Source: an uncultured Bacteroidota bacterium (GTDB taxonomy: Bacteria; Bacteroidota; Bacteroidia; Bacteroidales; JAAUTT01). Taken from it: a stretch of 64,000 bases of DNA. Shown here one piece after another: positions 3,233 to 50,972 of the stretch. Below the pieces are notes generated by a model that was not told the origin of the DNA, made no database searches, and worked only from the letters and a program-made list of their open reading frames with translations. A program made the translations under genes and the position numbers. Location: assembly GCA_963846585.1 (NCBI GenBank), contig CAWJWO010000018.1, forward strand, positions 427,759-491,758, in the 5' to 3' direction. Numbering within the stretch: the stretch's first letter is position 1; each line of letters opens with the position of its first letter.

Positions 3233-3290
3233 TTTTCAAATTTGCACATTTCTTGCCCTGAGCGTAGTCGAAGGGTCAAATTTTCAAATT
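3233..3290 (+). repeat. 58-nt element, copy 1
   Basis: TTTTCAAATTTGCACATTTCTTGCCCTGAGCGTAGTCGAAGGGTCAAATTTTCAAATT. Identical to 27161-27218 and 2 mismatches from 31465-31522. Both ends carry a direct TTTTCAAATT, and the centre is a stem TTGCCCT/AGGGTCAA. Confidence 0.9.
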
Positions 3291-3322
3291 ATTTTTCAAT
3301 ATCTTCCTTTCTTAATAATATT

Positions 3323-6970: not shown

Positions 6971-7457
6971 ATATATAACTATACTGATTTTTAGTGGTAA
7001 ATGGATACATTGCCTGTTTTTAATTTTATGTATAATTATAACAAGCTGTAAATACAATAGTATTTACGATAAATCAACCAATATACCAAATTACAAATGG
7101 AGCAAAAATTCGAAAATCAATTTCGAAATACCTGTCTCAGATACTATAAATGGATATAATATTTTGATTTCCCTGAGAAATGACAATGACTATCCTTACA
7201 GTAACTGCTTCCTTTTTGTTAATACTATCTCACCAAAAGGGATAATTATACACGATACAATTGAATTTTCACTGGCGGATGAGCATGGTAAATGGTTAGG
7301 ACATGGATTTGGCGGTGTATGGAGTACTGAATTCTATAAAAAAAACATAAGGTTCCCGGTTAAGGGGCCCTATAAAATTGAAGTTATTCAGGCTATGAGA
7401 GACGAACCTTTGGTTGGAATTATGGATGTCAGTATTCGCATCGAAAAAGCAAAATAA
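6954..7457 (+). CDS. gldH: Gliding motility lipoprotein GldH
   Basis: Start moved to the internal ATG at 6954, giving MKKLNKY...IIITSC, a lipobox with Cys. The body motifs LRNDNDYPYSNCFLFV and DEHGKWLGHGFG fit my recollection of GldH. Overlaps the ricT 3' end by 17 nt. Confidence 0.8.
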   Translation: MKKLNKYITILIFSGKWIHCLFLILCIIITSCKYNSIYDKSTNIPNYKWSKNSKINFEIPVSDTINGYNILISLRNDNDYPYSNCFLFVNTISPKGIIIHDTIEFSLADEHGKWLGHGFGGVWSTEFYKKNIRFPVKGPYKIEVIQAMRDEPLVGIMDVSIRIEKAK

Positions 7458-7578
7458 AAGAATCTCTAAAAGCCTCAACTTTTTTGTTGGACTTCAAATT
7501 TTAAATCCTCATTTACCTTAAGTAAACTGCGGTTTAAAATTTTAGTCCGCCTCTAATTTGAGGCTTTAGAGATTCTTT
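7458..7578 (+). repeat. Nested-hairpin repeat, copy A (subfamily 1)
   Basis: Outer stem AAAGAATCTCTAAAAGCCTCAA / TTGAGGCTTTAGAGATTCTTT. Inner AT-rich stem CTTCAAATTTTAAATCC / GGTTTAAAATTTTAG. Core CTCATTTAC-CTTAA-GTAAACTG. It starts 1 nt after the gldH stop. Copy B is essentially its reverse complement. Confidence 0.9.
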
Positions 7579-8474: not shown

Positions 8475-9581
8475 ATGGTTATCAATATAGAACTAGTTAC
8501 ATCAGCACTTGCAAAAGTCACACATCCTGCAGTAGGAAACGATATTGTTTCTCTTAACATGGTAAGCGACATTGTTATCAAAGGTCATGAAGTTTCTTTT
8601 ACACTCACTTTTCAAAAATCGACCGACCCGTTAATCACCTCTATAATAAAAGCGTGCAAAATAGCTCTGCAATCTCATATCAGTCCCCATATTGAAATTG
8701 GTGAAATAAAAATTAACAGCGTTCAAACTATTGAACATAAAGAAAATTCCCTTTCAAAAGTTAAGAATATTATTGCAGTATCTTCCGGCAAAGGCGGTGT
8801 TGGAAAGTCGACCATAACTGTCAATATAGCAGTTACCCTTGCAAAACTCGGATATAAAACGGGATTGATCGATGCTGACATTTATGGCCCTTCAATTCCA
8901 AAAATGTTTCATATTGAGGATAGTAAACCGGAAGTGATTGATAAAAATAACATGGATTATATTATCCCAATTATTCAAAATGGAATTAAGATTTTATCCG
9001 TAGGATTTTTTGTGAAACCAACTGATGCTTTAGTCTGGAGGGGCCCAATGGCCACCAATGCATTGCGTCAGTTAATCCATAACGGAGACTGGGGTGAACT
9101 CGATTTTTTATTGATTGATATGCCTCCTGGCACAGGAGATGTACATTTAACTATAGTACAGGAAATGTCAATAACAGGTGCAGTAATAGTTAGTACTCCT
9201 CAGCAGGTGGCTCTCGCTGATGCAATTAAAAGTATCAACATGTTTAAAGGTGAAAAAATTAATGTGCCAATACTGGGCCTTGTTGAAAATATGGCGTGGT
9301 TTACACCTGAAGAATTACCAGAAAACAAATATTTCATTTTTGGAAAGGATGGATGTAAAAAGTTAGCTGAATCAACTGGTGTACCATTTCTTGGCCAAAT
9401 CCCAATTATTCAAAGTATTTGTGAAGACGCTGATAATGGAACACCGTCAGCCTTAACCGATAACTCAACAGCAAAATTTGCCTTTAGCGATCTGGTAAAA
9501 AAACTTATCGAAGAAGTTGACCGGAGAAATGCCACTCTTGAACCTACACGCAGAATAGAAATTATCAAAAAAATGCACTAA
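8475..9581 (+). CDS. apbC: Mrp/NBP35-family Fe-S cluster carrier ATPase (ApbC)
   Basis: 368 aa. N-terminal DUF59-like domain, deviant Walker A SGKGGVGKST, and DMPPGTGD. Confidence 0.9.
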   Translation: MVINIELVTSALAKVTHPAVGNDIVSLNMVSDIVIKGHEVSFTLTFQKSTDPLITSIIKACKIALQSHISPHIEIGEIKINSVQTIEHKENSLSKVKNIIAVSSGKGGVGKSTITVNIAVTLAKLGYKTGLIDADIYGPSIPKMFHIEDSKPEVIDKNNMDYIIPIIQNGIKILSVGFFVKPTDALVWRGPMATNALRQLIHNGDWGELDFLLIDMPPGTGDVHLTIVQEMSITGAVIVSTPQQVALADAIKSINMFKGEKINVPILGLVENMAWFTPEELPENKYFIFGKDGCKKLAESTGVPFLGQIPIIQSICEDADNGTPSALTDNSTAKFAFSDLVKKLIEEVDRRNATLEPTRRIEIIKKMH

Positions 9582-9658
9582 AGAATAGTTGTTGGTTGTT
9601 AGTTATTAGTTGCAAGTTACAGGTTACAGGTTACAGGTTACAGGTTACAGGTTGCAGG
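9582..9658. repeat. Word array R6
   Basis: GTTGTTGGTTGTTAGTTATTAGTTGC followed by the heptamer AGGTTAC x5 and GTTGCAGG. It creates a spurious 44-codon N-terminal extension of the next ORF. Confidence 0.9.
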
Positions 9659-9727
9659 AACAAAATTACATCCTTTACAAAATATTCCTTGAATTTTATA
9701 GTTATCAATAAAATAACTGTCATATTA

Positions 9728-12375: not shown

Positions 12376-12663
12376 AATTTGAAAATGAGCAAATGAGCAA
12401 ATGAGTGGAAAAGGACGTGAGACGTGGGACGTGGGACGTGAAAAAAAGGACATGAAAATTAATTTGAAAATTTGAAAATGTGCTAATATAAAAATTTTGT
12501 AATTAACAATTTATTATCTGAATTACGTCTTTTGTCTTCTGTCTTTTGTTTTCTGTCTTCTTTTATCTTTCATCTTTTATCTGTCTTTGTAAGTCTCACG
12601 TCCTTTCATGTCCTTTTTCATGTCCCACGTCCCTTTTTGTCTTGGTTCTTGGTTCTTGGTTCT
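12376..12663. repeat. Composite word-array element R7
   Basis: Left half: AAATGAGC x3, GACGTGR x4, AATTTGAAAATTTGAAAATGTGC. Right half: TGTCTTC units, TTTATCTTT units, CACGTCC/CATGTCC units, CTTGGTT x3. GACGTG/CACGTC form complementary arms. The array ends 15 nt before the porX ATG. Confidence 0.9.
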
Positions 12664-12678
12664 AATAAATATATAATT

Positions 12679-14232
12679 ATGAAAAATATATCTGTATTAT
12701 GGGTGGATGACGAAATTGATCTTCTTAAACCTCATATTCTGCTGTTACAGGATCGGGGCTACAAGGTAACTACTTGTAATAATGGAACTGACGCTTTAAT
12801 AGTTGTACAACAGGATGATTTTGACATTATACTTCTGGATGAACATATGGCAGGATTAAGTGGCCTTGAAACACTTAACAAGCTCAAATCAATTACACCA
12901 AATACTCCTGTTATTATGATTACAAAAAATGAAGAGGAAAACCTTATGGAAGATGCCATAGGTTCTAAAATTACAGATTACCTTATCAAACCTGTAAATC
13001 CGAAACAGATTCTATTGACTATCAAAAAAAATACAGAACAAAAAAAACTGGTTTCACTAAAAACATCAACAGTTTATCAATCGGAGTTTTTGAATATAAG
13101 TAATTTGATTAGTTACGCGAATACTTATGCCGACTGGGTTAATTTATATAAAATTTTAGTTTACTGGGAAATTGAACTCGAAAAATTGAATGATCCCGGA
13201 ATGTTTTCGATTCTCCAATCACAACACAGTGAAGCCAACCAGAAATTTGCTAAATTCATAAAGCAAAATTATTTAACCTGGTTCGACGGAAAAGGTGATA
13301 AACCAATAATGTCACAAAATTTGATGAAGGAAAATATTGTACCCTACATCAAACCGGGAGATAATGTCTTTCTGATAGTAATTGATAATCTTCGCCTGGA
13401 CCAATGGAAAATACTTAGCCCCGTTTTATGTGAATATTTCAGGATAGAGCGTGAAGAATTGTATTTCTCCATACTCCCAACGGTTACCCAGTATGCCCGC
13501 AATTCTATTTTTGCCGGTCTTATGCCATTATCAATCAGGAAAATATATCCCAACCTTTGGGATGATAATGACGAAGACGAAATGAATAACCAATATGAAG
13601 AGGACCTTATGAGGCTTCAGCTTTCACGGCTTGGCGTGAAATGCAGGTTTGCTTATGAAAAAATAAGCAATCAGAAAACAGGCAATAAAGTACTTGAAAA
13701 TATAAATAATTATTTTAATTATGATTTCAGCATATTGGTATATAATTTCGTGGATATCCTTTCTCATGCACGGACAAGCCAGGAAACCATCCGTGAACTA
13801 TCAACCGATGAAGCTGCCTACAGGGCTCTAACTCTTTCGTGGTTTCAACATTCATACCTGTTTGAATTGTTAAAAGTCCTCGCCGAAGAAAACTGTAAAG
13901 TAATCATAACTACCGATCATGGTTCCACTAAGGTCGGCAACCCTATCAAAATTATCGGCGATAGGGATACATCTGTAAACCTCCGTTATAAACAAGGAAA
14001 AAACCTGAAATATAACCCTAAAGAAGTGTTTGAGATTAAAAATCCGGAAGTTGCACACCTTCCACGTTTCAATATTAGTACCAGCTATATATTTTCAACG
14101 GGGGACGATTTTATGGCATACCCCAACAATTTTAATCATTATGCCAGTTATTACAAAAATACTTTTCAACATGGCGGAGTTTCGCTTGAGGAAATGATTA
14201 TTCCCTTTGTAGTGCTGAACCCTTTAAAATAG
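12679..14232 (+). CDS. porX: Response regulator with PglZ (alkaline-phosphatase-fold) output domain; T9SS regulator PorX
   Basis: Start moved to the ATG at 12679 (MKNISVLWVDDE). CheY receiver with DD...D and KP. The C-terminal PglZ motifs IVIDNLRLDQW and TTDHGS match the architecture of PorX. Confidence 0.8.
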   Translation: MKNISVLWVDDEIDLLKPHILLLQDRGYKVTTCNNGTDALIVVQQDDFDIILLDEHMAGLSGLETLNKLKSITPNTPVIMITKNEEENLMEDAIGSKITDYLIKPVNPKQILLTIKKNTEQKKLVSLKTSTVYQSEFLNISNLISYANTYADWVNLYKILVYWEIELEKLNDPGMFSILQSQHSEANQKFAKFIKQNYLTWFDGKGDKPIMSQNLMKENIVPYIKPGDNVFLIVIDNLRLDQWKILSPVLCEYFRIEREELYFSILPTVTQYARNSIFAGLMPLSIRKIYPNLWDDNDEDEMNNQYEEDLMRLQLSRLGVKCRFAYEKISNQKTGNKVLENINNYFNYDFSILVYNFVDILSHARTSQETIRELSTDEAAYRALTLSWFQHSYLFELLKVLAEENCKVIITTDHGSTKVGNPIKIIGDRDTSVNLRYKQGKNLKYNPKEVFEIKNPEVAHLPRFNISTSYIFSTGDDFMAYPNNFNHYASYYKNTFQHGGVSLEEMIIPFVVLNPLK

Positions 14233-14365
14233 TAGTAAGTCGTAAGTATTTATATCTTATTTGCAAGTTACAAGTTGCAGGTTGCAGATTTCAGGTCCTT
14301 TCACGTCCCATGTCCTTTTTTTCACGTCCATTGTCTTTGTTCCTGGCTCTTGGTTCCTGGCTCTA
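14230..14365. repeat. Composite word-array element R8
   Basis: TAGTAGTAAGTCGTAAG (includes the porX stop), GCAAGTTACAAGTTGCAGGTTGCAG, CACGTCC/CATGTCC units, CCTGGCTCTTGGTTCCTGGCTC. It ends 6 nt from the stop of the minus-strand DUF4197 gene. Confidence 0.9.
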
Positions 14366-14371
14366 TTTTTT

Positions 14372-15088
14372 TCAGTTGCCAAACACTTTCTTTAGCAATT
14401 CCGATGTGCGGGCCATAGGATCTTTACGAATCTTATCTTCCTCCTTTGCAATCATTATAAACAATCCGTCAATAGCCTTTCCGGTAACGTATTCAGTAAG
14501 ATTTGGGTTCATTTTCTTAACAAAAGGAATCCTGTTATAAGCTTTAATAAGTTCTTCCCAATGTTTGGTTGCCTCTACCTTATCCAATGAAGCTTTTATT
14601 GAAGGTCTGAATTTTTCGTTTAGTTGAGGCGAGGTGTTTTTTTTGAGATACATGGTAGCTGCATCATTATTGCCTTTCACTATATTGATTGCATCCTTTA
14701 CGCTCATGTTTTTAATTGCATCAATAAATATATCCTTTGCATCCTTTGAAGCATCTTCAGCTGCCCTGTTAAGAGATAAAACCATTTCGTCAACCTGTTT
14801 TCCCATACCTATGGATTTCAGTTTTGACTCCATTTCTTTAGCCTCAGGAGGAAATGGAATTTTAATTTCCGGGTTTCCAAAATAACCATTCTCCTTTGAA
14901 ACAATATTAACACTGTTGCCTGTACCATTTACCAGGGCTTCCTTAATTCCATCAGCAGCTTCGCTCTCACTAAAACCACCGCCATTTTGCCCCATAATTG
15001 CTTTTGCATCATTTAACAATTGTGCTTCCATTTTATTTTCAGCTGTTGTAAACACTACAATTATTAATACCAATAGCATTTTTTTCAT
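14372..15088 (-). CDS. DUF4197 domain secreted protein
   Basis: 238 aa with a signal peptide. The stretch ADGIKEALVNGTGNSVNIVSKENGYFGNPEIKIPFPPEA is typical of DUF4197. Confidence 0.7.
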   Translation of the reverse strand: MKKMLLVLIIVVFTTAENKMEAQLLNDAKAIMGQNGGGFSESEAADGIKEALVNGTGNSVNIVSKENGYFGNPEIKIPFPPEAKEMESKLKSIGMGKQVDEMVLSLNRAAEDASKDAKDIFIDAIKNMSVKDAINIVKGNNDAATMYLKKNTSPQLNEKFRPSIKASLDKVEATKHWEELIKAYNRIPFVKKMNPNLTEYVTGKAIDGLFIMIAKEEDKIRKDPMARTSELLKKVFGN

Positions 15089-15159
15089 ATTAAATATTTT
15101 TACTGCCGAAGGTAATATTTTAATTTCAAATCATTGTTGTACGGATAAAATACTATCTC

Positions 15160-15289
15160 GTCCCTGACGGGACTTTCTGTTATTATTATTTCATTATCTG
15201 CCAATATGTTGTCCCTACGGGACTATCCCGTCAGGGATTAAATATTGGTAGAAACAAATTCACCCCTGCATTTAAGTCCCGTTAGGGAC
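15160..15289. repeat. Cluster of GTCCC-N3-4-GGGAC mini-hairpins
   Basis: GTCCCTGACGGGAC (15160-15173). A long imperfect palindrome CTGCCAATATGTTGTCCCTACGGGA / TCCCGTCAGGGATTAAATATTGGTAG (15198-15251). GTCCCGTTAGGGAC (15276-15289). Confidence 0.85.
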
Positions 15290-15381
15290 GGCATATTTAC
15301 ATTCAGAATAATTTGACATTTTTTACAAATCAATAGTGATTTAAAATAAATTTTCTTCAAAATTTTGAATAATCAAAAAAA

Positions 15382-15414
15382 ATACTTTACTTTGATAAAG
15401 TATATACTATACTT
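15382..15414 (+). promoter_or_regulatory. Candidate oriT for the MobV relaxase (overlapping inverted repeats)
   Basis: ATACTTTA-cTTTGA-TAAAGTAT (15382-15403) overlaps AAGTATA-TAC-TATACTT (15398-15414). The shared TAAAGTATA arm and overlapping-IR layout resemble the pMV158-type MobV oriT as I recall it. It lies about 220 nt upstream of mob. Confidence 0.45.
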
Positions 15415-15497
15415 CATATTTAAGTTTTAACAGGTATATCGCATTTTGATACTGCTACTAACTAATCCTGAGCAATTAATAATAGTTAATTAATATA

Positions 15498-15617
15498 GGG
15501 TACCTCTAAAGGCCTCAAATTTGAGGCGGGCAAAAATTTTAAACCGGAGTTTACTTACAGTAAATGAGGATTTAAAATTTGAAGCCCAACAAAAAAGTTG
15601 AGGTTTTTAGAGGTGCC
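15498..15617 (-). repeat. Nested-hairpin repeat, copy B (subfamily 1, inverted relative to A)
   Basis: Outer stem GGGTACCTCTAAAGGCCTCAA / TTGAGGTTTTTAGAGGTGCCC. Inner stem GGGCAAAAATTTTAAACC / GGATTTAAAATTTGAAGCCC. Core GGAGTTTAC-TTACA-GTAAATGAGG. Near-identical to the reverse complement of copy A. It ends 17 nt before the mob ATG. Confidence 0.9.
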
Positions 15618-15634
15618 CTTAAACTTCAAAAATT

Positions 15635-16708
15635 ATGACACAATTTGCAGTACTACACATCGAGAAAAACAAGGGCAGTCAAATAGGCTTAAGTAAACAC
15701 ATCAGCCGGGAAACAATCCCTGCAAACGCTGATCCTTCAAGATTGTACCTTAATGAAACTCCTGTTGGTTCAAGGAATCAAATGCAAGACATAAAGGATC
15801 GGATAAAGGAAGGTGTGACTCAAAAAACTGCTATCAGGAAAGATGCAGTAAAAGCAATGCAAATAATTTTAACCGGCAGCCACGAACAGATGAAAGTTAT
15901 TGAAAGCAACGGACTTTTAAAAGACTGGATGAAACAAAATATATCCTGGCTTGATAAAACATTCGGAAAAGCTAACGTAGTGAATGTTACCTTACACATG
16001 GATGAATTAACCCCTCATGTTCATGCTACTGTTGTACCTATAACTTCCGACGGACGATTATGTGCAAAGGATTTCATGTCAAAGGAACACCTGAAAGGTT
16101 ATCAGACAAGTTACGCCAAAGCAATGGAACCTTTTGGCCTGAGCCGCGGTTTGGAAGGAAGCAGGGCTAAACATCAGGATGTAAAACAGTATTACGCTAA
16201 ACTGAATTACGAACTTCCAAAAATTAATAAGGAAATTGAGGAAAAACAAGAAACGGTAAAAGTACTTAAAAATGAAATCAGGGTTGATACAGCCTGGAAA
16301 ACCGTCACAGGTATTGTTGATGGATTTGCAAAGCGAAAAGAAAATAAGGACAAAGAAGATGAAATTGCTTCTTTAAAGAAAACAGCAGAACAACTTTCAA
16401 TTGATCTTAATAATTTACAGAAAGAGTTTGCTAAATCCAAATTAGAATTGAATAATACTAAAAAAGAATTTTCAACTTTACATGCTGAGATAGATAAATC
16501 AATGCAAGAAGGTTTAAAACAAGCCGTCCATACAATTAATCATTTGATATATAGCCAAATTGAAAAACCATTATTTCAATTTGAACTAATATACAAAAAG
16601 GAAAAGCCTGTAATAGAATTAAAACTTATTAAACCAACCAATCATGTGCCTACAGTGGAAGAAATAATGGGCAAAAATGTAAGAAAAAGAAATTTGGAGC
16701 GGTTGTAG
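15635..16708 (+). CDS. MobV-family (Mob_Pre) conjugative relaxase
   Basis: 357 aa. The N-terminal relaxase motifs align with MobM of pMV158: LHIEKNKG...SKHISRE, IRKDAV, and the metal-binding HMDELTPHVHATVVP (HxDE...PHxH). The C-terminal half is coiled-coil. The stop codon lies inside the first GGTTGTAGA repeat word. Confidence 0.85.
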   Translation: MTQFAVLHIEKNKGSQIGLSKHISRETIPANADPSRLYLNETPVGSRNQMQDIKDRIKEGVTQKTAIRKDAVKAMQIILTGSHEQMKVIESNGLLKDWMKQNISWLDKTFGKANVVNVTLHMDELTPHVHATVVPITSDGRLCAKDFMSKEHLKGYQTSYAKAMEPFGLSRGLEGSRAKHQDVKQYYAKLNYELPKINKEIEEKQETVKVLKNEIRVDTAWKTVTGIVDGFAKRKENKDKEDEIASLKKTAEQLSIDLNNLQKEFAKSKLELNNTKKEFSTLHAEIDKSMQEGLKQAVHTINHLIYSQIEKPLFQFELIYKKEKPVIELKLIKPTNHVPTVEEIMGKNVRKRNLERL

Positions 16709-16797
16709 AAAAGGTTGTAGAGGTTATAGAAAAAGGTTGTAGAGGTTGTAGAGGTTGTAGAGGTTGTAGAGGTTGTAGAGGTTGTAAAGGTTGTAGT
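16701..16797. repeat. Tandem 9-mer array R9 (GGTTGTAGA)
   Basis: GGTTGTAGA repeated about 10 times with A-rich interruptions; 5 perfect consecutive copies run from 16735. The TAG of the first unit terminates mob. Confidence 0.9.
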
Positions 16798-16844
16798 TCT
16801 TATAATACTGTTTAGTATCTGTCTTTAAAGTGCATTGTTTGGAT

Positions 16845-16946
16845 CATAAAGTTCGTAGCCGAGGCTTGCGAAGATTAAAAATCAGGAGTTTACTAAAGTA
16901 AATGACTGATTTTTAGGCGAGCGTAACGAAGGATACGGACTTTATG
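16845..16946 (-). repeat. Nested-hairpin repeat, copy C (subfamily 2)
   Basis: Outer stem CATAAAGTTCGTA / TACGGACTTTATG. Inner stem TTAAAAATCAG / CTGATTTTTAG. Core GGAGTTTAC-TAAA-GTAAATGAC. Flanking CGAGGCTTGCGAAG and CGAGCGTAACGAAG. It lies 8 nt downstream of the minus-strand SPOR gene stop. Confidence 0.85.
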
Positions 16947-16954
16947 AACAAACA

Positions 16955-17926
16955 CTATTTAGAAAGAAGCCACACCTCTTCCATCCCCTTCATTGCCCTT
17001 ATTTTTTCACATTCACTTAAAGCTTTTTCTTTATCTCCGAATTCCCCTAACGAAACCCTGTATAAATCTTCTCCGAATTGTAAAACTTCTGTTTTAAATC
17101 CATCCTTTTGATAAATATTAGCAAGAATAGTTGCACGTTTAAATGTATTAAAACTGCCGCCAATAATAAAATAGCTTTTGCCTTCAGAGGGTTTTGCCAC
17201 CTTTACAGAATCAATAGCAAGTGCATTCTTTTTATCGGTTTTATTATTGAAAAATTTTTCCAAATCACTTACTTTGGTAGTATCCGGGATTAATTTAACA
17301 GCAGATGGTACCTTCACATTTTTGTCAGTTACAGTAATTTTACTTACAGTTTTTGTAATAATATATCTTGATTTTATTTTACTAAAATTTATATACACGA
17401 AAATTGCTCCACCTGCAAAAATTAATATGCCTAAAGCATACAGAATTTTGAAAATGGTTTTTTTAAAATTTTTGAGGGATTTTTCATCATTTTGATTAGG
17501 GCCTGATAAAAAATCCAAAGATCTATAATCAATTTTAGATAACCCAAAGGAATCAGTTAAAAAATTAGAACCATATTCACGATCAAACCGGATAATATCG
17601 TGATCTTTTGAAAAATACCCAATCCCTTCCAAAAGAATTGTTTCTCCTTTGTTCAATTTCTTATTAAAAGCGTCAACCTGATGTTTTACAAATTTTTCTG
17701 CATTTTTTTTTGTTATCTTCTTCTGCTGAGCTATTTGTTGGACAAAAAAATCATCAGGACTATCAAGTTGCTTATTAAAAATTAAGAACTTAGTAGGAGG
17801 TGTAATAGTATGTTCTTCACTATTAATCTCTGCAGCCCTGTATATTGTCTTAAATCCTCCAATTCCCGGAATTATTAAAATATCATTGCTATATAATAAT
17901 TCCTTAATGTAAATTGATAATTCCAC
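16955..17926 (-). CDS. HU-CCDC81-like N-terminal domains + TM + C-terminal SPOR domain protein
   Basis: 323 aa. The N-terminus LIIPGIGGFKTIYRAAEI is typical of the bacterial HU-CCDC81 domain. One TM helix follows, then a C-terminal SPOR-like segment YFIIGGSFNTFKRATILANIYQKDGF...YRVSLGEF. Confidence 0.7.
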   Translation of the reverse strand: MELSIYIKELLYSNDILIIPGIGGFKTIYRAAEINSEEHTITPPTKFLIFNKQLDSPDDFFVQQIAQQKKITKKNAEKFVKHQVDAFNKKLNKGETILLEGIGYFSKDHDIIRFDREYGSNFLTDSFGLSKIDYRSLDFLSGPNQNDEKSLKNFKKTIFKILYALGILIFAGGAIFVYINFSKIKSRYIITKTVSKITVTDKNVKVPSAVKLIPDTTKVSDLEKFFNNKTDKKNALAIDSVKVAKPSEGKSYFIIGGSFNTFKRATILANIYQKDGFKTEVLQFGEDLYRVSLGEFGDKEKALSECEKIRAMKGMEEVWLLSK

Positions 17927-20512: not shown

Positions 20513-21559
20513 ATGGGTAAGAAAAAAATATTAGTTACCGGTGGAACAGGATATATCGGATCACACACTGCAGTAGAACTTATAAATGAAGGCTTTGATG
20601 TTATAATTGCAGATAACCTTTCCAATTCATCCACTTACTCACTTGATGGAGTGGAAAAAATAACAGGGATTCGTCCTGTATTTGAACAATTCGACCTGTG
20701 TGATAAAAAAAAGGCAAAGGATCTGTTTGTAAAATATCCTGAAATTGAGGCTATTATTCATTTTGCTGCTTCAAAAGCCGTAAATGAATCAGTTGAAAAA
20801 CCTTTATTATATTACCGCAATAATTTTGTTACGCTTATTAATTTACTTGAAATTGTTAACGAAAATCCTGAAATTAAATTTGTATTTTCTTCATCTTGTA
20901 CAGTTTATGGACAACCTGATTATTTACCAGTCACAGAAAATTCTCCTGTTAAAAAAGCAACCTCTCCATATGGCAATACAAAACAGGTTTCAGAAGAAAT
21001 AATTCAGGATATATGCGCTGCCAATCCTCAGGTTATGGCCATATCACTTAGGTATTTTAATCCTATAGGTGCACACAACTCTGCAATTATTGGTGAACTT
21101 CCTCTTGGTGTTCCGCAAAACCTGGTTCCATTTATTACTCAAACTGCCATTGGCCTTCGCGAACAGCTTAAAGTATTTGGCGACGATTATAATACTCCGG
21201 ATGGTTCATGTATCAGAGATTATATTCATGTGGTAGATCTTGCGAAAGCCCATGTAATTGCAATTAAACGACTTATAAATAAAAAAAACAAGGCTTGTTA
21301 TGAGGTTTTTAACCTTGGCACAGGACGCGGGGTTTCGGTACTTGAACTCATAGATGTTTTTCAAAAAACTACCGGGGTTAACCTTAATTATAAAATAGTG
21401 GGCCGACGAATGGGCGATATAGAAAAAGTTTGGGCCGATACCAAATCAGCCAATGAAGAACTAGGCTGGAAAGCTGAAAGCACACTCGAAGAAACCATTC
21501 TTTCGGCATGGAACTGGGAAAAGTACTACCGCAATATAGTAGTAAGTCGAAATCAGTAA
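20513..21559 (+). CDS. galE: UDP-glucose 4-epimerase
   Basis: 348 aa. Contains GGTGYIGSH, SSSCTVYG, and the catalytic YGNTK (YxxxK). The start codon abuts the previous stop. Confidence 0.9.
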   Translation: MGKKKILVTGGTGYIGSHTAVELINEGFDVIIADNLSNSSTYSLDGVEKITGIRPVFEQFDLCDKKKAKDLFVKYPEIEAIIHFAASKAVNESVEKPLLYYRNNFVTLINLLEIVNENPEIKFVFSSSCTVYGQPDYLPVTENSPVKKATSPYGNTKQVSEEIIQDICAANPQVMAISLRYFNPIGAHNSAIIGELPLGVPQNLVPFITQTAIGLREQLKVFGDDYNTPDGSCIRDYIHVVDLAKAHVIAIKRLINKKNKACYEVFNLGTGRGVSVLELIDVFQKTTGVNLNYKIVGRRMGDIEKVWADTKSANEELGWKAESTLEETILSAWNWEKYYRNIVVSRNQ

Positions 21560-21773
21560 AACGAATTTTAGAACCAGAAACCAAGAGCCAGGAACCAAGA
21601 CAAAATACAGAAGACAGAAAACAAAAGAAAAATGATTTAATAATTAAGCATCGAGTTTTATAACTTGTATTTACGTAATACTTAAATCTCAACTCTAGAA
21701 TCTTAAATCACTAGCCACTAGTACCTGAACCTGTGTCCCTTATCTTGGTTCCTGGTTCTTGGTTCCTGGCTCC
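21560..21773. repeat. Composite palindromic word-array element R11 (homologous to R16)
   Basis: Outer arms AGAACCAGAAACCAAGAGCCAGGAACCAAGA (left) and CTTGGTTCCTGGTTCTTGGTTCCTGGCTCC (right) are complementary. The interior order CAGAAGACAG / TTAAGCATCGAGTTTTA / CTTAAATC / CACTAGCCACTAG parallels 29269-29457. Confidence 0.9.
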
Positions 21774-21797
21774 ATTTTAAAGATCAATTTAGTTCAT

Positions 21798-26680: not shown

Positions 26681-27043
26681 ATGACAATTGAAGTTTTAAA
26701 ATCAAAAATACACAGGGTAACCGTAACTGATGCAAACCTTAATTACATAGGCAGCGTTACCATAGATGAGGATCTGTTGGTTGCAGCCAATCTTATTGAA
26801 TTTGAAAAAGTTCAGGTAGTAAATATTAATAATGGCAAACGTTTGGAAACATACATAATAAAAGGCGAAAGAGGTTCAGGCGTGATTTGCCTTAACGGGC
26901 CTGCAGCAAGACAAGTTGCAGTAGGTGATATAGTCATAATTATGTCTTTTGCCAGCATGGATTTTGAAGAAGCTAAAAAGTTTAAACCTGTAATTGTGTA
27001 TCCGGATACTGCCACTAACTCGTTAATAGTGCATAGTGTTTAG
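26681..27043 (+). CDS. panD: Aspartate 1-decarboxylase
   Basis: 120 aa. Contains KIHRVTVT and the self-processing site YIGSVTID. The last ~6 codons (LIVHSV*) are encoded by ATAGTGCATAGTG-type repeat words. Confidence 0.9.
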
Positions 27044-27160
27044 TGCTTAGTGCTTAGTTGCTGGTTGCCAGTAAAAAGTGATGAGGTGATGAAGTAATGA
27101 AGTGATTATGTGATTAGGTTTATAAGATTTTCTATAAACCTTATAAACCTTATAAACTCA
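27027..27160. repeat. Composite word-array element R14
   Basis: AGTGCAT/AGTGCTT 7-mers (spanning the panD stop), GCTGGTTGC, GTGATGAR 8-mers, and TTATAAACC 9-mers. Followed immediately by 58-nt element copy 2. Confidence 0.9.
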
Positions 27161-27218
27161 TTTTCAAATTTGCACATTTCTTGCCCTGAGCGTAGTCGAA
27201 GGGTCAAATTTTCAAATT
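27161..27218 (+). repeat. 58-nt element, copy 2
   Basis: Identical over 58 nt to 3233-3290. It ends 11 nt before the ATG at 27230. Confidence 0.9.
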
Positions 27219-27229
27219 TTAATTAACTT

Positions 27230-27721
27230 ATGGACCATCTCAGTTTTATCCAATCCAAAATTGTTCTCGACTGGTCAGATCTGGAATCCAGCCTTGCCTT
27301 ATGGAGATTTAAAAACCAAAAAATAATATTTACAAATGGTTGTTTTGATATTATCCATCTTGGCCATGTAGAATATCTTGCTAAGGCAGCATCACTTGGT
27401 ACCCAGTTAGTAATTGGCGTAAACAGCGACGCATCAGTTAAACGGTTAAAAGGCCCCAAACGTCCGGTTCAGGACGAAAATACCAGAGCTATGGTATTGG
27501 CTTCATTTGGTTTTGTTTCAAAAGTTGTACTTTTCGATGAAGATACTCCATATGACCTGATTAAACTGATATTACCGGATATCCTGGTTAAAGGAAGTGA
27601 TTATGCTCCTGAAAATGTGGTTGGCTACGACATTGTTACTGAAAATGGGGGTGAAGTTATTACCATTGACCTGGTTTACGGGCACTCTACTACTTCCATT
27701 ATTAATAAACTCTGCATATAG
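27230..27721 (+). CDS. Cytidylyltransferase-fold D-glycero-beta-D-manno-heptose-1-phosphate adenylyltransferase-like protein (RfaE domain II type)
   Basis: 163 aa. Contains FTNGCFDIIHLGHVEYL (HxGH nucleotidyltransferase motif), with length and layout like RfaE domain II / HldC. Confidence 0.75.
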   Translation: MDHLSFIQSKIVLDWSDLESSLALWRFKNQKIIFTNGCFDIIHLGHVEYLAKAASLGTQLVIGVNSDASVKRLKGPKRPVQDENTRAMVLASFGFVSKVVLFDEDTPYDLIKLILPDILVKGSDYAPENVVGYDIVTENGGEVITIDLVYGHSTTSIINKLCI

Positions 27722-27906: not shown

Positions 27907-29268
27907 ATGGCCAAAGAACATACAGTATATATATGTCAGCGATGCGGGGCTGAATCCGCTAAATGGATAGGTCGCTGCCCTTCTTGCAATGAATGGAATA
28001 CCTATACAGAAGAAATTATCCAAAAACAATTGACAAGAAATTCTGCCGTTCCAGGCAGAGGATATTCTAAACCTGTATCTCTTGATGAAATATCTGCAAT
28101 TCATGAATCCCGGTTAGATACAAATATAAATGAATTGAACAGGGTACTTGGTGGTGGAATGGTTCGTGGTTCATTAATCCTACTTGGTGGCGAACCAGGT
28201 ATAGGTAAGTCAACTCTCGCTTTACAGCTTGCGTTAGGGTTTAATAATGTAAAAGTATTATATATTACTGGTGAAGAAAGCCTTCAACAAATAAAACTAC
28301 GTGCAGAACGTATACACTCAAAAAGTAATAATTGCTTATTTGCCAATGAAACATCACTTGAAAATATCCTCGGATTATGCCAAAGCGAGCTTCCTGATCT
28401 GGTAATAATAGACTCAATACAGACTATTTCTGCAGAATCCCTGGAATCAGCAAATGGAAGCGTTTCCCAGGTGCGTGAATGTACCAATGCCCTGCTGCGA
28501 TTTGCTAAAAGCTCTGATACGACTATCCTGCTTATTGGACACATTACCAAAGAAGGTTACCTGGCAGGTCCAAAAGCCATGGAACACATTGTTGATGTTG
28601 TTTTACAATTTGAGGGCGACAATCAGCATATTTACCGTATTCTGCGCCCAAGTAAAAATCGTTTCGGATCTATTACCGAGATTGGAATTTTTGAAATGTG
28701 CAATGAAGGATTAAAGGAAATTTCCAATCCGTCGGAAATACTTATTTCATCTAACGAAGAACAATTAAGTGGTGTAAGTATAGCAGCTACAATAGACGGT
28801 ATAAGGCCATTTCTGATTGAAGTTCAATCATTGGTCAGTACGGCAGCCTACGGAACTCCGCAACGTTCATCCACAGGTTTTGATATCCGGCGATTAAATA
28901 TGTTGCTGGCCGTTCTTGAAAAACGGGCTGGTTTTAAACTTGCCTCCAAGGATGTTTTTTTAAACATTACCGGTGGAATAAAAGTCGACGACCCCGCTAT
29001 AGACTTGGCTATTATTACTTCAATATTATCTTCAAACCTTGATATTTATGTAAACCATAAGTATTGCTTCGCTGGCGAAATTGGCCTTTCAGGGGAAATC
29101 CGGCCGGTTAACCGTATAGATCAACGTATAAGAGAAGCCGAAAAACTGGGCTTTAATAAAATATTCTTCTCTAAAGCCAATAACAGCGGTTTATCAGCTT
29201 CTAAACATAAAATTGAATTGGTTCCTATTGGTAAAGTTGAACATCTGTTTCATAAATTATTCAAATAA
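27907..29268 (+). CDS. radA: DNA repair protein RadA
   Basis: 453 aa. N-terminal C4 zinc finger CQRCG...CPSC, Walker A GGEPGIGKST, the KNRFG motif, and a Lon-like C-terminal domain. Confidence 0.95.
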   Translation: MAKEHTVYICQRCGAESAKWIGRCPSCNEWNTYTEEIIQKQLTRNSAVPGRGYSKPVSLDEISAIHESRLDTNINELNRVLGGGMVRGSLILLGGEPGIGKSTLALQLALGFNNVKVLYITGEESLQQIKLRAERIHSKSNNCLFANETSLENILGLCQSELPDLVIIDSIQTISAESLESANGSVSQVRECTNALLRFAKSSDTTILLIGHITKEGYLAGPKAMEHIVDVVLQFEGDNQHIYRILRPSKNRFGSITEIGIFEMCNEGLKEISNPSEILISSNEEQLSGVSIAATIDGIRPFLIEVQSLVSTAAYGTPQRSSTGFDIRRLNMLLAVLEKRAGFKLASKDVFLNITGGIKVDDPAIDLAIITSILSSNLDIYVNHKYCFAGEIGLSGEIRPVNRIDQRIREAEKLGFNKIFFSKANNSGLSASKHKIELVPIGKVEHLFHKLFK

Positions 29269-29457
29269 AATGGAACCAAGAACCAGGAACCAAGAGAAAA
29301 GAAGGCAGATGGCAGAAGATAAAAGATAAAAAAATTTAGAATTAAGAATCGAGATTTTAGATTTGTAATTTATGAATGCCTAAATCCGTAATTCACTAGC
29401 CACTAGTCCCTGGCCACTAGCCCCATTTCCTGGTTCTTGGTTCCTGGTTCCTGGTTC
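29269..29457. repeat. Composite palindromic word-array element R16 (homologous to R11)
   Basis: Left arm GGAACCAAGAACCAGGAACCAAGAG (29272-29296). Right arm TTCCTGGTTCTTGGTTCCTGGTTCCTGGTTC (29427-29457). The interior carries GGCAGAAGATAAAAGATAAAA / TTAGAATTAAGAATCGAGATTTTAGATTTG / CACTAGCCACTAGTCCCTGGCCACTAGCC. Confidence 0.9.
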
Positions 29458-29463
29458 TATTAA

Positions 29464-31158: not shown

Positions 31159-31463
31159 TAAGTCGTAAGCCGTAAGAAAAGAGAAGGCAGAAGACAGAAG
31201 GCAGAATGAGACGTGAGACATGAGACGTAGGAAGTGAGACGTGGGACGTGAGACATGGAAATAATTTGAAAATGTGTTAATTTGAAAATTTGTAAATGAA
31301 AGCAATTAAAATCTCAAATCACGAATCTTAAATCTCAAATCACCAAATCACCTTTTCCACGTCTTTCCATGTCTTTCCATGTCCTTCCATGTCCCCTTTG
31401 TATATTCCACATCTCACGTCTCACGTCTCATGTCCCTTTTCCTAATTCTTGGTTCTTGGTTCC
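31146..31463. repeat. Composite word-array element R17
   Basis: GTAAGTC 7-mers; GAAGGCAGAAGACAGAAGGCAGA; GAGACGTGAGACATGAGACGTAG... 7-mers; AATTTGAAAATGTG; ATCTCAAATCACGAATCTTAAATCTCAAATC; CCATGTCTTT 10-mers; CACGTCT 7-mers; TTCTTGGTTCTTGGTTCC. GACGTG/CACGTC arms are complementary. Confidence 0.9.
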
Positions 31464-31464
31464 A

Positions 31465-31522
31465 ATTTCAAATTAGCACATTTCTTGCCCTGAGCGTAGT
31501 CGAAGGGTCAAATTTTCAAATT
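31465..31522 (+). repeat. 58-nt element, copy 3
   Basis: Two mismatches relative to copies 1 and 2. Its last 2 nt overlap the stop codon of the minus-strand PBP1A gene. Confidence 0.9.
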
Positions 31523-33878
31523 ATTTAAAGTTGTCTTCATTATAATCAGTCCTGATAACCCCTTCAGCATTACCCATAGGACAATCAAAATTAGATTTAA
31601 ACCCTTCAGGGCATTCAAATGGTTCCTGGCTTAAATTTAATCGTTTGTCTGCATATGCTTTCTGCAAAAAAAGTGCAAAAATTGGTAACGCCATCGATGA
31701 TCCCTGCCCTTCTCTCATATTATTAAAATGAATGGATGGTTCATCTCCACCTACCCATGCTCCGGCAACCAGATCAGGTGTAATTCCTACGAACCAACCG
31801 TCGGATTGATTTTGAGTAGTCCCTGTTTTGCCCCCGATTTCATTCATCAGGTTATAAGAACTTCTTATCCTTGATGCCGTTCCATTATGTACAACCCCCA
31901 TTAACATTTGTAACATCAGGTACGCGGTATGTTCATTAATTGCTTCTACCTGCCGGGGCTTAAAGGTTGTAAGTATGTTCCCGTTTTTATCTTCGATACG
32001 GGTAATAAAAATAGGTTGAGTATAAATTCCCTTATTAGGAAAAGCAGTATAGGCACCTACCAAATCGTATAATGAAATATCAGGAACACCCAGGCACAAT
32101 GAAGGAACAGCAGGAATATCGCCCTTAATCCCTAATTTTCTTAAGAGATCAATAAGCGATTGTGTACCAAATTTTTGTAATAAAAAAGCTGCTACATAAT
32201 TCACTGACATGGCAAGCCCCCAACGAAGGTTAACCGGTCTCCCGTCAAATGGAGTTGGTTCATCATTCTTTGGAGTCCAGGAACTATCTTCCGATAGCTT
32301 AAATGAAACCGGAACATTAGGTACCATATCACATGGTTTATAACCTTCCTTCATGGCAAGAGTATATAAAAACGGCTTAATAGTTGAACCTACCTGTCGC
32401 TTCTGTATCATTACGCCATCATATTTAAAATTTCGAAAATCAGGCCCTCCTACATAAGCTCTAACGTATCCGTTATGGGGATCCACTGCCATAAAACTGG
32501 CACGTAAATAAAATTTTGAATAACGTATTGAATCCCATGGAGACATTACTGTATCTTTTATTCCTTTCCACGTAAATACTCTCATGTCAGTCGATCGCTT
32601 AAATGTATCTTTGATCTGAATATCCGTTAAGCCCTGATTAATCAAGCTCCTGTAACGGTCGGAATGTCTCATGGCTATTATAAGTCGTTCGTTTACTTCA
32701 TTATCTGTAAGCTCGCTGCCAAATGGAGCCCTTTTCTTCCCTTTTTTAGCTTTGAAAAAATCCGGCTGAAGCTTTGCTGACAGATGCTCAACTAATGCCT
32801 TTTCAGCATATTCCTGCATTCTCGAATCAATAGTTGTATAAATTCTCAACCCGTCTTTGTATAAACTATATTTTGAACCGTCCGGTTTGATATTCTTATT
32901 ACACCACCCATATAAAGGATCTTCAATCCACCGGAGAGAATCATCCCTGTATGAAATAGCTGAATTATAATCCTTAAACTGAGGTTTGTTCTTGTTCATT
33001 ATCATGCGGATGTATTCCCTGAAATATGTAGCCAGGCCCGATTCATGACCCTGGGCATGGAAGTTAATGTTTAGAGGAACTTTTATCAGTGAATCAAACT
33101 GGTTTTTGGTAATGTTTTTTTGCTCATACATTTTTTCCAGGACATTATTGCGCCGGGATAATGCCCTTTCAGGATTGCGCTTTGGATTAAAGGTAGTCAT
33201 TCCCTTAAGCATTCCTATTAGTAATGCCGCTTCTTCAATTTTTAGGGAATCAGGCGGTTTATTAAAAAACATCCTTGATGCAGTTTTAATTCCGGTCGCT
33301 TCGCTTGCAAACGATACCGTATTTAAATACATTGTTATTATTTCTTCCTTTGAGAAATTTCGTTCAAGTTTAATGGCAATTACCCATTCTTTAAATTTAG
33401 TAAGGGCAAAAAGTCCTTTTTTTACAATTTTGGGCTGATTTACTATAGTATCGCGGGGAAAAAGATTTTTAGCCAATTGTTGTGTAATAGTACTGCCTCC
33501 TCCTTCACTTTTTTGCCCTAACAGAATAGTTTTACTTATCACCCGCATTAATCCGATCCTGTCAATGCCTGAATGTTTCATAAACCGCTGATCCTCCCTG
33601 GCAATCAAGGCTTGAACAAGATATGGGGATAAATCTTTATATTCTACAGTATTTCTATTCTCATCCAAGTAATACGTCCCGATGATTTTGCCATCCGTGG
33701 AATAAATTTCAGTTGCCAGATTTCGCAACGGGTTTTCAAGATCTTCAAAAGTTGGCATAAATCCAAGCCATCCAAGAGAAATTAATGTAAATATTATAAA
33801 TAGTAAAAAAGTTGGCGTAAGAAAAATAATCCAAAAAATATTTAAGTACTTTTTTTGCTTATCGTTAAGATTCTTCAT
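31521..33878 (-). CDS. mrcA: Penicillin-binding protein 1A (bifunctional transglycosylase/transpeptidase)
   Basis: 785 aa. N-terminal TM helix, GT51 motifs EDQRFMKHSGID and GGSTITQQLAKN, transpeptidase motifs STIKP and KTGTT. Confidence 0.9.
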   Translation of the reverse strand: MKNLNDKQKKYLNIFWIIFLTPTFLLFIIFTLISLGWLGFMPTFEDLENPLRNLATEIYSTDGKIIGTYYLDENRNTVEYKDLSPYLVQALIAREDQRFMKHSGIDRIGLMRVISKTILLGQKSEGGGSTITQQLAKNLFPRDTIVNQPKIVKKGLFALTKFKEWVIAIKLERNFSKEEIITMYLNTVSFASEATGIKTASRMFFNKPPDSLKIEEAALLIGMLKGMTTFNPKRNPERALSRRNNVLEKMYEQKNITKNQFDSLIKVPLNINFHAQGHESGLATYFREYIRMIMNKNKPQFKDYNSAISYRDDSLRWIEDPLYGWCNKNIKPDGSKYSLYKDGLRIYTTIDSRMQEYAEKALVEHLSAKLQPDFFKAKKGKKRAPFGSELTDNEVNERLIIAMRHSDRYRSLINQGLTDIQIKDTFKRSTDMRVFTWKGIKDTVMSPWDSIRYSKFYLRASFMAVDPHNGYVRAYVGGPDFRNFKYDGVMIQKRQVGSTIKPFLYTLAMKEGYKPCDMVPNVPVSFKLSEDSSWTPKNDEPTPFDGRPVNLRWGLAMSVNYVAAFLLQKFGTQSLIDLLRKLGIKGDIPAVPSLCLGVPDISLYDLVGAYTAFPNKGIYTQPIFITRIEDKNGNILTTFKPRQVEAINEHTAYLMLQMLMGVVHNGTASRIRSSYNLMNEIGGKTGTTQNQSDGWFVGITPDLVAGAWVGGDEPSIHFNNMREGQGSSMALPIFALFLQKAYADKRLNLSQEPFECPEGFKSNFDCPMGNAEGVIRTDYNEDNFK

Positions 33879-36325: not shown

Positions 36326-36369
36326 TGCATAGTGCTTAGTGCTTAGTTGCTGGTTGTTGGTTGCTGGTA
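36315..36369. repeat. Word array R18
   Basis: ATAGTGCTTAGTGCATAGTGCTTAGTGCTTAG followed by TTGCTGGTTGTTGGTTGCTGG. The first TAG is the topA stop codon. Confidence 0.9.
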
Positions 36370-36410
36370 GATTTTGTTTATAAACCGATCTGCATTTTTT
36401 AAAATTAATT

Positions 36411-40066: not shown

Positions 40067-40186
40067 TGCCTTTAAGAAACTGTCAATTTCTGCGTTAGGC
40101 TCATCATCAAAATGCTCATTTACTATCAGTAAACTCCGCTTTTGATGATTTCGCAAGCCTTGAACTTGACAGTTTCTTTAATGTCA
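40066..40186 (+). repeat. Nested-hairpin repeat, copy D (subfamily 2) in the gldK-gldL gap
   Basis: Outer stem GTGCCTTTAAGAAACTGTCAA / TTGACAGTTTCTTTAATGTCAC. Inner stem TCATCATCAAAA / TTTTGATGA. Core GCTCATTTAC-TATCA-GTAAACTCC. The flanks GCGTTAGGCTC and TTCGCAAGCCT match the reverse complement of copy C. It starts on the last base of the gldK stop. Confidence 0.9.
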
Positions 40187-50965: not shown

Positions 50966-50972
50966 TCTATTT

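Follow-up and report, generated by a model that had tools for sequence, protein, structure and literature searches.

The 64-kb stretch of DNA analyzed here (the window) comes from an uncultured Bacteroidota bacterium and contains a 1.9-kb gap between two housekeeping-type genes (positions 15089-16954). A single credible open reading frame (ORF) was detected in this gap, at 15635-16708 on the plus strand, and it encodes a MobV (Mob_Pre) relaxase of 357 aa. On the left, the gap is bordered by a DUF4197 gene (14372-15088, minus strand; Pfam E = 1.8e-80), and on the right by a gene for an HU-CCDC81/SPOR protein (16955-17926, minus strand; identified by Pfam and termed HU-SPOR below), which is convergent with the relaxase gene. 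An earlier reading of the letters alone (the sequence-only reading) had pointed out this intact MobV relaxase, isolated among housekeeping genes, and its description was confirmed here.

Residues 1-187 of the protein matched the Pfam profile Mob_Pre (PF01076; E = 1.5e-39; 136.3 bits with a cut-off of 25.5), and a score of 193.7 bits was obtained with the NCBIfam MobV equivalog NF041497 (cut-off 100). A phmmer search matched MobM of the streptococcal plasmid pMV158 (PDB 4lvi; E = 3e-17), which is the prototype of MOBV1 (PDB 4lvi-4lvm and 5n2q). The AlphaFold (AF2) model had a mean pLDDT of 85, with values above 90 across most of residues 1-170, and Foldseek aligned its N-terminal domain with MobM-DNA complexes (4lvl/4lvk; E = 6e-15, target-normalized TM 0.84-0.86, rmsd 2.2-2.4 Å). 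The relaxase domain covers residues 1-180; in the model, the C-terminal half consists of a helix (183-215), a low-confidence linker (216-229), a long helix (230-308), and a small beta-hairpin (314-331). The catalytic motifs that the sequence-only reading had described as intact were all found (KH22ISR25, AIRKDAV, and LH121MDELTPH128VH130ATVVP). H22, R25, H121, E124, P127, H128, and H130 were invariant in a 50-sequence family alignment and D123 was kept in at least 90% of the sequences; the residues of HxxR and HxDExxPHxH were also conserved in a 14-sequence family alignment. H22-I-S-R25 aligns with H22-N-E-R25 of MobM, which places His22 at the position of the catalytic His22 of MobM. By profile, motifs, and modeled fold, the product of 15635-16708 is a member of the MOBV family. 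It shares with MobM the predicted fold, the putative H22 nucleophile, both motifs, and a C-terminal helical region. However, the two proteins are only 28-29% identical, the window gene is chromosomal and without a replicon, and its activity is predicted only. PADLOC matched the protein to LmuB and JetC only through coiled-coil resemblance in the C-terminal helix, and this was not accepted as evidence for a role in defense.

The relaxase gene was found to be syntenic at the same chromosomal position in the window and in four other lineages, related uncultured Bacteroidales known from metagenome assemblies. Matches to PGK put the window organism among uncultured Bacteroidales. These are the four closest known relaxase homologs and comprise (i) L024 (86% identity to the window protein), with DUF4197, a 180-nt spacer, and Mob; (ii) L003/L004/L010 (83%), i.e. 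the lineage of uncultured Bacteroidetes MFD01223.bin.1.57, with DUF4197, Mob, a Big_2 gene, HU-SPOR, and GFO_IDH, as well as three DDE transposases in L003 only; (iii) L009 (71%), with Mob, a 46-nt spacer, HU-SPOR, and GFO_IDH; and (iv) L007/L008 (67%), with Mob, three inserted genes, HU-SPOR, and GFO_IDH. HU-SPOR was located downstream of the relaxase in all four lineages with that side visible (the L024 contig stops inside the relaxase gene). It directly adjoins the relaxase in the window and L009, whereas inserted genes intervene in L003/L004 and L007. DUF4197 is the left neighbor in the window, L024, and L003/L004 only, with DUF4197-relaxase spacers of 180 nt in L024 and 313 nt in L003. 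In L007, an unrelated 228-aa gene occupies this side; in L009, only a gene start of 31 codons is visible, which had no DUF4197 match. A joint arrival of DUF4197 and the relaxase is conceivable, three of the five lineages having this neighbor. A profile search of genome contigs with an alignment as query returned one orthologue (in the MFD01223 metagenome-assembled genome (MAG), identical to L003) and distant Bacteroidota relaxases, and GTDB representatives therefore contribute no additional relaxase lineage. A genome-contig search with a single protein gave 94 pattern matches and no relatives.

Assemblies of one and the same lineage differ within the locus. Compared with L004, L003 (12533-16635) carries three DDE_Tnp_1 transposase genes inserted after the Big_2/type IX secretion system (T9SS)-tail gene, which they truncate; the relaxase/HU-SPOR interval therefore accepts insertions. 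In L007, the relaxase is preceded by HicAB and HigBA toxin-antitoxin pairs and followed by Ig-domain genes.

Divergence of the relaxase was in step with that of its housekeeping neighbors. For L003, L009, and L007, to which the relaxase is 83, 71, and 67% identical, the corresponding values were 88, 80, and 84% for GFO_IDH and 64, 60, and 61% for HU-SPOR; DUF4197 showed 82-86% identity (L003 and L024) and PorX 88%. Synonymous divergence (dS) between the window and L024 was 0.70 for Mob and 1.05 for DUF4197, and between the window and L003 it was 1.86 for Mob, 1.38 for HU-SPOR, and 2.37 for GFO_IDH. Applied to nonsynonymous divergence (dN), the four-point condition gave the topology ((window, L003), (L007, L009)) for both Mob and HU-SPOR. 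Where dS was measurable, dN/dS of the relaxase was 0.11 and 0.05 (flanking genes: 0.03-0.19). Both parts of the protein are constrained, with pN/pS of 0.09-0.17 in the relaxase domain and 0.20-0.37 in the C-terminal half. GC content (0.351) and GC content at third codon positions (GC3; 0.296) of the relaxase gene can be compared with means of 0.355 and 0.294 for the genes of the window, and its codon usage equals the averages. The relaxase is under strong purifying selection, and its full-length ORF has been kept in five lineages through saturated synonymous divergence. As at least five lineages carry the gene at a shared chromosomal position and selection has kept it intact, these comparisons identify it as a long-retained functional gene, not a decaying scar of a mobile element. 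The sequence-only reading would have been refuted had relatives revealed the decayed end of a known mobilizable transposon; the opposite, an intact syntenic gene, was found.

The five upstream regions could be aligned in two blocks only, a promoter-like block of the type TTTTG...TAnnTTTG and a palindrome following it. In the window, the Bacteroidota-type promoter-like elements (15363-15394, plus strand) consist of TTTTG at 15363-15367, a 19-nt spacer, and TTACTTTG at 15387-15394, the latter with one mismatch to TAnnTTTG. A consensus of the TTTTG/TAnnTTTG type is established for promoters of Bacteroides and Flavobacterium. Since these elements stand just before the palindrome, transcription would be predicted to start at the palindrome. 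A scan for sigma-70 promoters and terminators gave counts not above those of shuffled sequences, the sigma-70 model being unsuited to Bacteroidota.

The palindrome itself (AAGTATA-TAC-TATACTT, 15398-15414, plus strand) is a candidate recognition site of the relaxase, resembling an origin of transfer (oriT) or operator. It is conserved in all five lineages and is the best-conserved non-coding block across these lineages with saturated synonymous sites. No further match was detected in the window, with 0 matches expected and none in 100 shuffles. The distance from palindrome to ATG is about 235 nt in the window and 37-115 nt in the four other chromosomal lineages. Plasmid relatives carry AAGTATAG-CCCAC/CCTAT/GCTCAT-TATACTT 100-150 nt upstream of mob, with a short hairpin in front. 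The two arms are 6-7 nt apart in these plasmid relatives but 1-3 nt apart in all five chromosomal lineages. The palindrome also matches inverted repeat 2 (IR2) of the pMV158 oriT (AAAGTATAGTGTG/TTATACTTTA; PMC5863519), and mobM shares with the window gene an upstream inverted repeat AAGTATA...TATACTT that overlaps the promoter; the pMV158 spacer is 6 nt long. The pMV158 oriT reads ...ACTTTATGAATATAAAGTATAGTGTG/TTATACTTTAC, with the nick within the IR2 spacer, and the MobM footprint covers AAGtaTAGTGTG (PMC5863519). This oriT overlaps the mobM promoters, and MobM on double-stranded IR2 is thought to shut the gene off (PMC5863519). Judged by these alignments, the chromosomal palindrome is homologous to the oriT/operator of MobV systems, and it is this palindrome, not the nested hairpins of the locus, that likely constitutes the target of the relaxase.

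A second inverted repeat, ATACTTTA-ctttga-TAAAGTAT (15382-15403, plus strand), overlaps the palindrome and repeats its arm ATACTT. It is similar to inverted repeat 1 (IR1) of pMV158, and the two overlapping repeats of the window recall the IR1/IR2 arrangement of that plasmid. Only the window has it as an 8-bp stem, with weak counterparts (3-6 bp) elsewhere, and its significance is therefore uncertain. Folding of the palindrome regions as single-stranded DNA gave modest energies of -1.6 to -6.3 kcal/mol, comparable to published energies of the inverted repeats of pMV158.

In a neighbor-joining tree of relaxase domains (without support values), the five chromosomal sequences formed one short-branched clade nested within plasmid relaxases. 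Its successive sisters were P0005/P0006 and then P0007, and the contigs of P0005 and P0007 carry Rep_3, ParA/ParB, and toxin-antitoxin genes. Contigs of several relatives (3.3-4.9 kb) displayed terminal overlaps as in circular molecules. The direct sister groups in the tree are the MobV relaxases of small circular Bacteroidota Rep_3 plasmids (the uncharacterized metagenomic contigs L104-L109; Tunicatimonas pelagia NZ_CP120686.1; Cardinium plasmids), which are 50-63% identical in the relaxase domain and share the upstream site AAGTATAG-CCCAC/CCTAT-TATACTT. Unlike the window gene, they reside on replicons of 3-7 kb, several of them circular, with Rep_3, ParA/ParB, and toxin-antitoxin genes, and the proteins end in a tail of the form R-x-R-G-hydrophobic. 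The best matches in PLSDB were below 60% identity, were all annotated as MobV, and included the T. pelagia plasmid and Cardinium plasmids.

Related genomes without the relaxase retain the order PorX ... HU-SPOR - (DegT, hexapeptide transferase) - GFO_IDH - UDP-glucose dehydrogenase - epimerases. At the position of the relaxase, these outgroups hold TsaE-AlaDH, thioesterase, or other genes. The relaxase is lacking in the outgroups only, and HU-SPOR is present there as well. The simplest history that can be read from these gene orders and the tree is a single capture in the ancestor of the subclade, loss of all but the mob module, and subsequent vertical descent. An earlier proposal, that the gene is the remnant of an integrated mobilizable element, accordingly stands as far as its origin is concerned, given the sister relaxases on small circular Rep_3 plasmids. 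Its second part, decay, is contradicted by synteny in five lineages and by purifying selection.

Partner genes for mobility were not found. Integrase, type IV coupling protein, type IV secretion system (T4SS), and Rep genes were all missing within 10 kb on either side of the relaxase, and the remainder of the window, scanned for ORFs of 120 aa or longer, yielded none of these four gene types either. The sequence-only reading had remarked on the missing integrase, coupling protein, and replication gene, which now holds across the 64 kb. The scanned ORFs represent housekeeping functions (PGK, a RadA-like protein, PBP1, TopA, PorX, a PorW-like TPR protein, PorP, and GldLMN) and further include sugar-nucleotide enzymes and an SprB-type adhesin. 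Neither flanking direct repeats nor att-like repeats were detected around the relaxase in the window. When plasmid backbone proteins (Rep_3, ParA, ParB, toxin-antitoxin, and others) were compared with the chromosomal loci by tblastn, the best E-value was 0.3, and no Rep_3 or Par remnants or pseudogenized backbone genes were found near the chromosomal relaxases. The window contig is a chromosome-like MAG contig (341-631 kb). On such a contig, with no Rep_3 or Par remnants found, the locus is not a mobilizable plasmid.

The locus also lies outside the definition of an integrative and mobilizable element (IME), as it has no recombinase or att sites and its presence is not variable. With IMEs and 'iMOB' islands it shares a chromosomal relaxase with an oriT-like site and a presumed need for a helper conjugative element (PMC5704250; bioRxiv 10.64898/2026.01.13.699239). 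IMEs, however, encode an integrase or another recombinase (or retain a pseudogene of it), have att sites and cargo, and vary in their presence, whereas the window has a single gene at a fixed orthologous site across species. In a recent survey, an integrase was present in 81% of the chromosomal intervals with such elements, and mostly an integrase pseudogene in the rest (bioRxiv 10.64898/2026.01.13.699239). The limited literature searched contained no description of a solitary relaxase gene that several species hold in synteny and under purifying selection. The evolutionary pattern of the relaxase is solid and somewhat unexpected.

With about even confidence, we read these features as a one-gene mobilization module (promoter, oriT-like palindrome, and MobV relaxase) that would have been captured long ago and would since have passed down vertically at a single chromosomal site, its function maintained by purifying selection. 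Its source would be a small Rep_3-type Bacteroidota plasmid and its captor the ancestor of an uncultured Bacteroidales subclade. The relaxase would bind the palindrome overlapping its own promoter and thereby regulate itself, as MobM does at IR2 of pMV158, and may nick the plus strand at the palindrome by means of His22 and the H-x-D-E...P-H-x-H metal site. If a co-resident conjugative element supplied the coupling protein and T4SS, the relaxase could pilot chromosomal DNA into a recipient in a manner similar to high-frequency-of-recombination (Hfr) transfer, where a chromosomal nick site likewise leads adjacent host DNA. Classical Hfr involves the integration of a whole conjugative element; in the window, only relaxase and oriT would be resident and the machinery would be needed in trans. 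With the polarity of pMV158 (nick in the coding strand, transfer 5′ to 3′; PMC5863519), the relaxase, HU-SPOR, and the sugar-nucleotide genes would lead, followed by gldKLMN, with porX and porW trailing. The synteny would be preserved by recombination in related recipients. The minimal in-cis mobilizable unit suggested in the sequence-only reading is compatible with this scheme and gains strength from the conserved palindrome; of its T9SS component, the predicted polarity would put gldKLMN ahead and porX and porW behind.

Several points weigh against a module that still mobilizes the chromosome. Neither a T4SS nor a coupling protein was found in the 64-kb window, mobilization, nicking, and expression are predicted, and the long-term benefit of a built-in transfer origin to its host is an argument, not an observation. 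The IR1-type hairpin, which MobM needs, is convincing in the window alone. The extreme C-terminal tail differs from that of the plasmid relatives, whose alignment showed a conserved basic ending R/K-x-R-G-[LMFI]-x-[LMIR]. Of the four complete chromosomal orthologs, P0004 retains RKSGLGN, whereas the other three have the ending RK-x-NLE(L/RL). If this tail is a recognition signal for the coupling protein, its alteration may bear on the export of the chromosomal enzyme. Expression could be damped by a very stable hairpin that the window carries in the leader, 15 nt ahead of the ATG. This hairpin has not visibly relaxed selection on the relaxase, since dN to L003 is 0.099 for the window and 0.119 for L024, i.e. 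the window lineage shows no acceleration. Finally, the chromosomal site may no longer be cleavable, because by analogy with pMV158 the nick falls within the 6-nt spacer, which has contracted to 1-3 nt.

This last point leads to the main rival, exaptation, which we regard as possible but less likely: after capture, the palindrome would have lost its nick site by spacer contraction and would now act as an operator only, the chromosome not being mobilized, and the relaxase would have been kept for action in trans, for example on plasmids with a cognate oriT or oriT-only elements (as help or interference), or in a host DNA transaction. Exaptation would account for short spacers in all five chromosomal lineages, as opposed to 6-7 nt in every plasmid relative and the longer spacer of pMV158 (PMC5863519), and it would be in line with purifying selection that still acts on the catalytic residues and the C-terminal domain. 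MobM represses its own promoter through double-stranded IR2 (PMC5863519) and is reported to regulate plasmid copy number (PMC5737340). However, no trans target was identified, a precedent was not found in the literature searched, and the bases beside the right arm (..AC|TATACTT) are common to the plasmid sites, so that the nick site may survive. That relaxase and oriT have been kept as a core chromosomal gene, be it as a built-in conjugative export origin or as an exapted enzyme with oriT reduced to an operator, is proposed tentatively and at somewhat less than even confidence.

Either outcome, export origin or exaptation, would if true be a documented example of a host chromosome domesticating a conjugative relaxase over the long term. 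When a chromosomal relaxase lacks a mating apparatus, it is usually taken for an IME or the wreck of one; in the window, relaxase and site behave like a core gene. Should the enzyme still nick, these Bacteroidales would have a permanent chromosomal transfer origin, which, in the presence of a conjugative element, would bias the choice of host genes that flow between relatives, surface-polysaccharide and gliding/T9SS genes included. Without nicking at its own site, the enzyme would exemplify relaxase exaptation, for which the literature searched held no precedent. The case also cautions that relaxase counts over-estimate the active mobile elements in metagenome-assembled genomes.

It is improbable that a tiny selfish unit was inserted repeatedly and independently beside HU-SPOR, or spread there horizontally, instead of being inherited vertically. 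The variable left neighbor (DUF4197 in three lineages, other genes in L007 and L009) and the accessory genes clustering nearby in L007 and L003 (toxin-antitoxin, Big_2, and DDE transposases) would fit such a unit. However, dS and dN of the relaxase match those of the flanking genes pairwise with identical topology, the composition is host-like, a recombinase, att-like repeats, or a second palindrome were not found, and the chromosomal clade is monophyletic with short branches. Still less probable, and strongly disfavored, is a neutral decaying remnant of an integrated mobilizable plasmid or IME that is intact by chance. The relaxase does stand alone without partner genes, and chromosomal relaxases without T4SS are common and often read as IMEs or remains (PMC3158053; bioRxiv 10.64898/2026.01.13.699239), but five lineages with saturated synonymous divergence retain a full-length ORF at dN/dS of 0.05-0.11, the promoter-palindrome block is conserved, and pseudogenized backbone genes were not found nearby.

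The remaining features of the gap are repeats. Four copies of a nested hairpin occur in the window: copy A (7455-7567), copy B in the 5′ leader of the relaxase (about 15497-15619, plus strand), copy C at the 3′ end of HU-SPOR (about 16844-16947, plus strand), and copy D (40071-40181). Copies B and C fold far more stably than shuffled sequences (B: -31 kcal/mol, z = -7.1; C: z = -6.1). That these two copies bracket the relaxase had been noted before, with distances of 17 nt upstream and about 140 nt downstream; B ends 15 nt before the ATG and C starts about 136 nt past the stop codon. Their common orientation was likewise borne out by the asymmetric core GGAGTTTACT..GTAAATGA. Copy B is 88% complementary to copy A, and the core GGAGTTTACTAAAGTAAATGA of copy C is common to copies A, B, and D.

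Copy B was not present at the homologous position in L024, L003/L004, L007, or L009. As it is missing there and the palindrome lies 37-115 nt from the ATG in those loci, compared with 235 nt in the window, sequence comparison identifies copy B as a recent, lineage-specific insertion into the leader, outside the module. C-type copies were found in only one other lineage, L003/L004, as three identical head-to-tail units with a 115-nt period directly downstream of HU-SPOR (L003 17000-17320 and L004 12725-13045). In L003, these copies are about 6 kb away from the relaxase, with the Big_2 gene and three transposase genes in between, and still border on the HU-SPOR 3′ terminus. The hairpin core was not found in any retrieved locus with a plasmid-type relaxase. 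The site of copy D and the corresponding outgroup spacer are too diverged to be compared.

A functional tie between the relaxase and the dispersed hairpins, raised speculatively in the sequence-only reading, is the least probable of all explanations considered: two same-orientation copies bracket the gene in the window, but copy B occurs at no orthologous locus, C-type copies track the 3′ end of HU-SPOR, copies A and D lie 8 and 23 kb away between unrelated genes, plasmid relaxase loci are without the core, and 15398-15414 is a far better candidate substrate. The model for such a tie is the pairing of repetitive extragenic palindromic (REP) elements with REP-associated tyrosine transposases (RAYTs), which are domesticated HUH (Y1) transposases flanked by their hairpin substrates. 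The window resembles it in that a palindrome-rich genome has vertically retained one nuclease derived from a mobile element. The gene and its flanking hairpins, however, are not conserved together, and MobV belongs to the histidine relaxases, not to the Y1 HUH transposases. Relaxase and hairpins are not a pairing of the REP/RAYT type, a conserved association of enzyme and hairpin being absent.

The hairpin copies (window 7455-7567, 15497-15619, 16844-16947, and 40071-40181; L003 17000-17320) have in common the core GGAGTTTACT(3-4 nt)GTAAATGA. Their outer stems of 7-14 bp are self-complementary and different in each copy (AAAGAAT/ATTCTTT, AGGGTAC/GTGCCCT, CATAAAGTTCGTA/TACGGACTTTATG, AAGAAACTGTCAA/TTGACAGTTTCTT, and GGAAATAAAGCC/GGCTTTATTTCC). 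The left arm of copy B, AGGGTAC, is also present at the hairpin-free homologous site of L003, which suggests either inverted duplication of the target upon insertion or insertion into palindromes. At the gathering threshold, Rfam gave no match in the whole window, nested hairpins included. A permissive Rfam scan of 15100-17000 returned sub-threshold candidates only, e.g. plant miRNA-precursor models on hairpin B, which were rejected as generic matches to long hairpins.

A cluster of GTCCC/GGGAC hairpins to the left of the relaxase, already recognized in the sequence-only reading, proved to be real, with three matches at 15160-15289 compared with 0.05 expected. All three GTCCC(N)GGGAC mini-palindromes belong to a nested palindromic element of 135 nt (15157-15292) between the divergent DUF4197 and relaxase genes, which folds into one extended nested hairpin (-32.9 kcal/mol, z = -8.0) and is the sole copy in the window. 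It was not found in the corresponding spacers of L003 (313 nt) and L024 (180 nt), and is possibly a distinct element resembling miniature inverted-repeat transposable elements (MITEs). At the other end of the gene, a 9-nt tandem array, (AGGTTGTAG) x9, starts at the relaxase stop codon (16712-16796; Tandem Repeats Finder score 120); the unit before it, CGGTTGTAG, contains the stop codon. By these comparisons, nested hairpins and the GTCCC element are later, lineage-specific insertions unrelated to the relaxase. The 9-nt array is probably likewise a lineage-specific intergenic repeat, close relatives having given no comparable orthologous spacer. The insertions swell a module of about 1.3 kb to the 1.9-kb gap.

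Short tandem arrays with units of 7, 9, 10, and 14 nt fill intergenic spacers widely in the window, and related units recur in both orientations (e.g. TTACAGG, TCTTGGT/TCCTGGT, TAGTGCT, TCACGTCCTT, and AGGTTGTAG). Arrays were observed at 680-1080, 1400-1460, 2186-2336, 9573-9673, 12412-12668, 14228-14369, 16712-16796, 21555-21778, 27025-27106, 29264-29463, 31177-31468, 36312-36370, 43716-43809, 50840-50973, and 54901-54997. In the one orthologous spacer compared, that between PorW and PorX, L003 (the relative with 83% identity) has 48 nt and the window about 300 nt. This looks like a lineage-specific invasion by intergenic repeats, resembling the heptamer repeats of cyanobacteria (short tandemly repeated repetitive (STRR) sequences). 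A further family consists of a 76-nt direct repeat, TTTCAAATTTGCACATTTCTTGCCCTGAGCGTAGTCGAAGGGTCAAATTTTCAAATT, with intergenic copies at 3234-3309, 27162-27237, and 31466-31541 (83-89% identity). Finally, a 243-nt tandem repeat with five copies of 84-89% identity (62905-63998) lies mostly inside the ORF at 58677-63647 (minus strand), which encodes a 1656-aa SprB/CHU_C (T9SS-signal) adhesin and in which the repeat is translated into 81-residue protein repeats.

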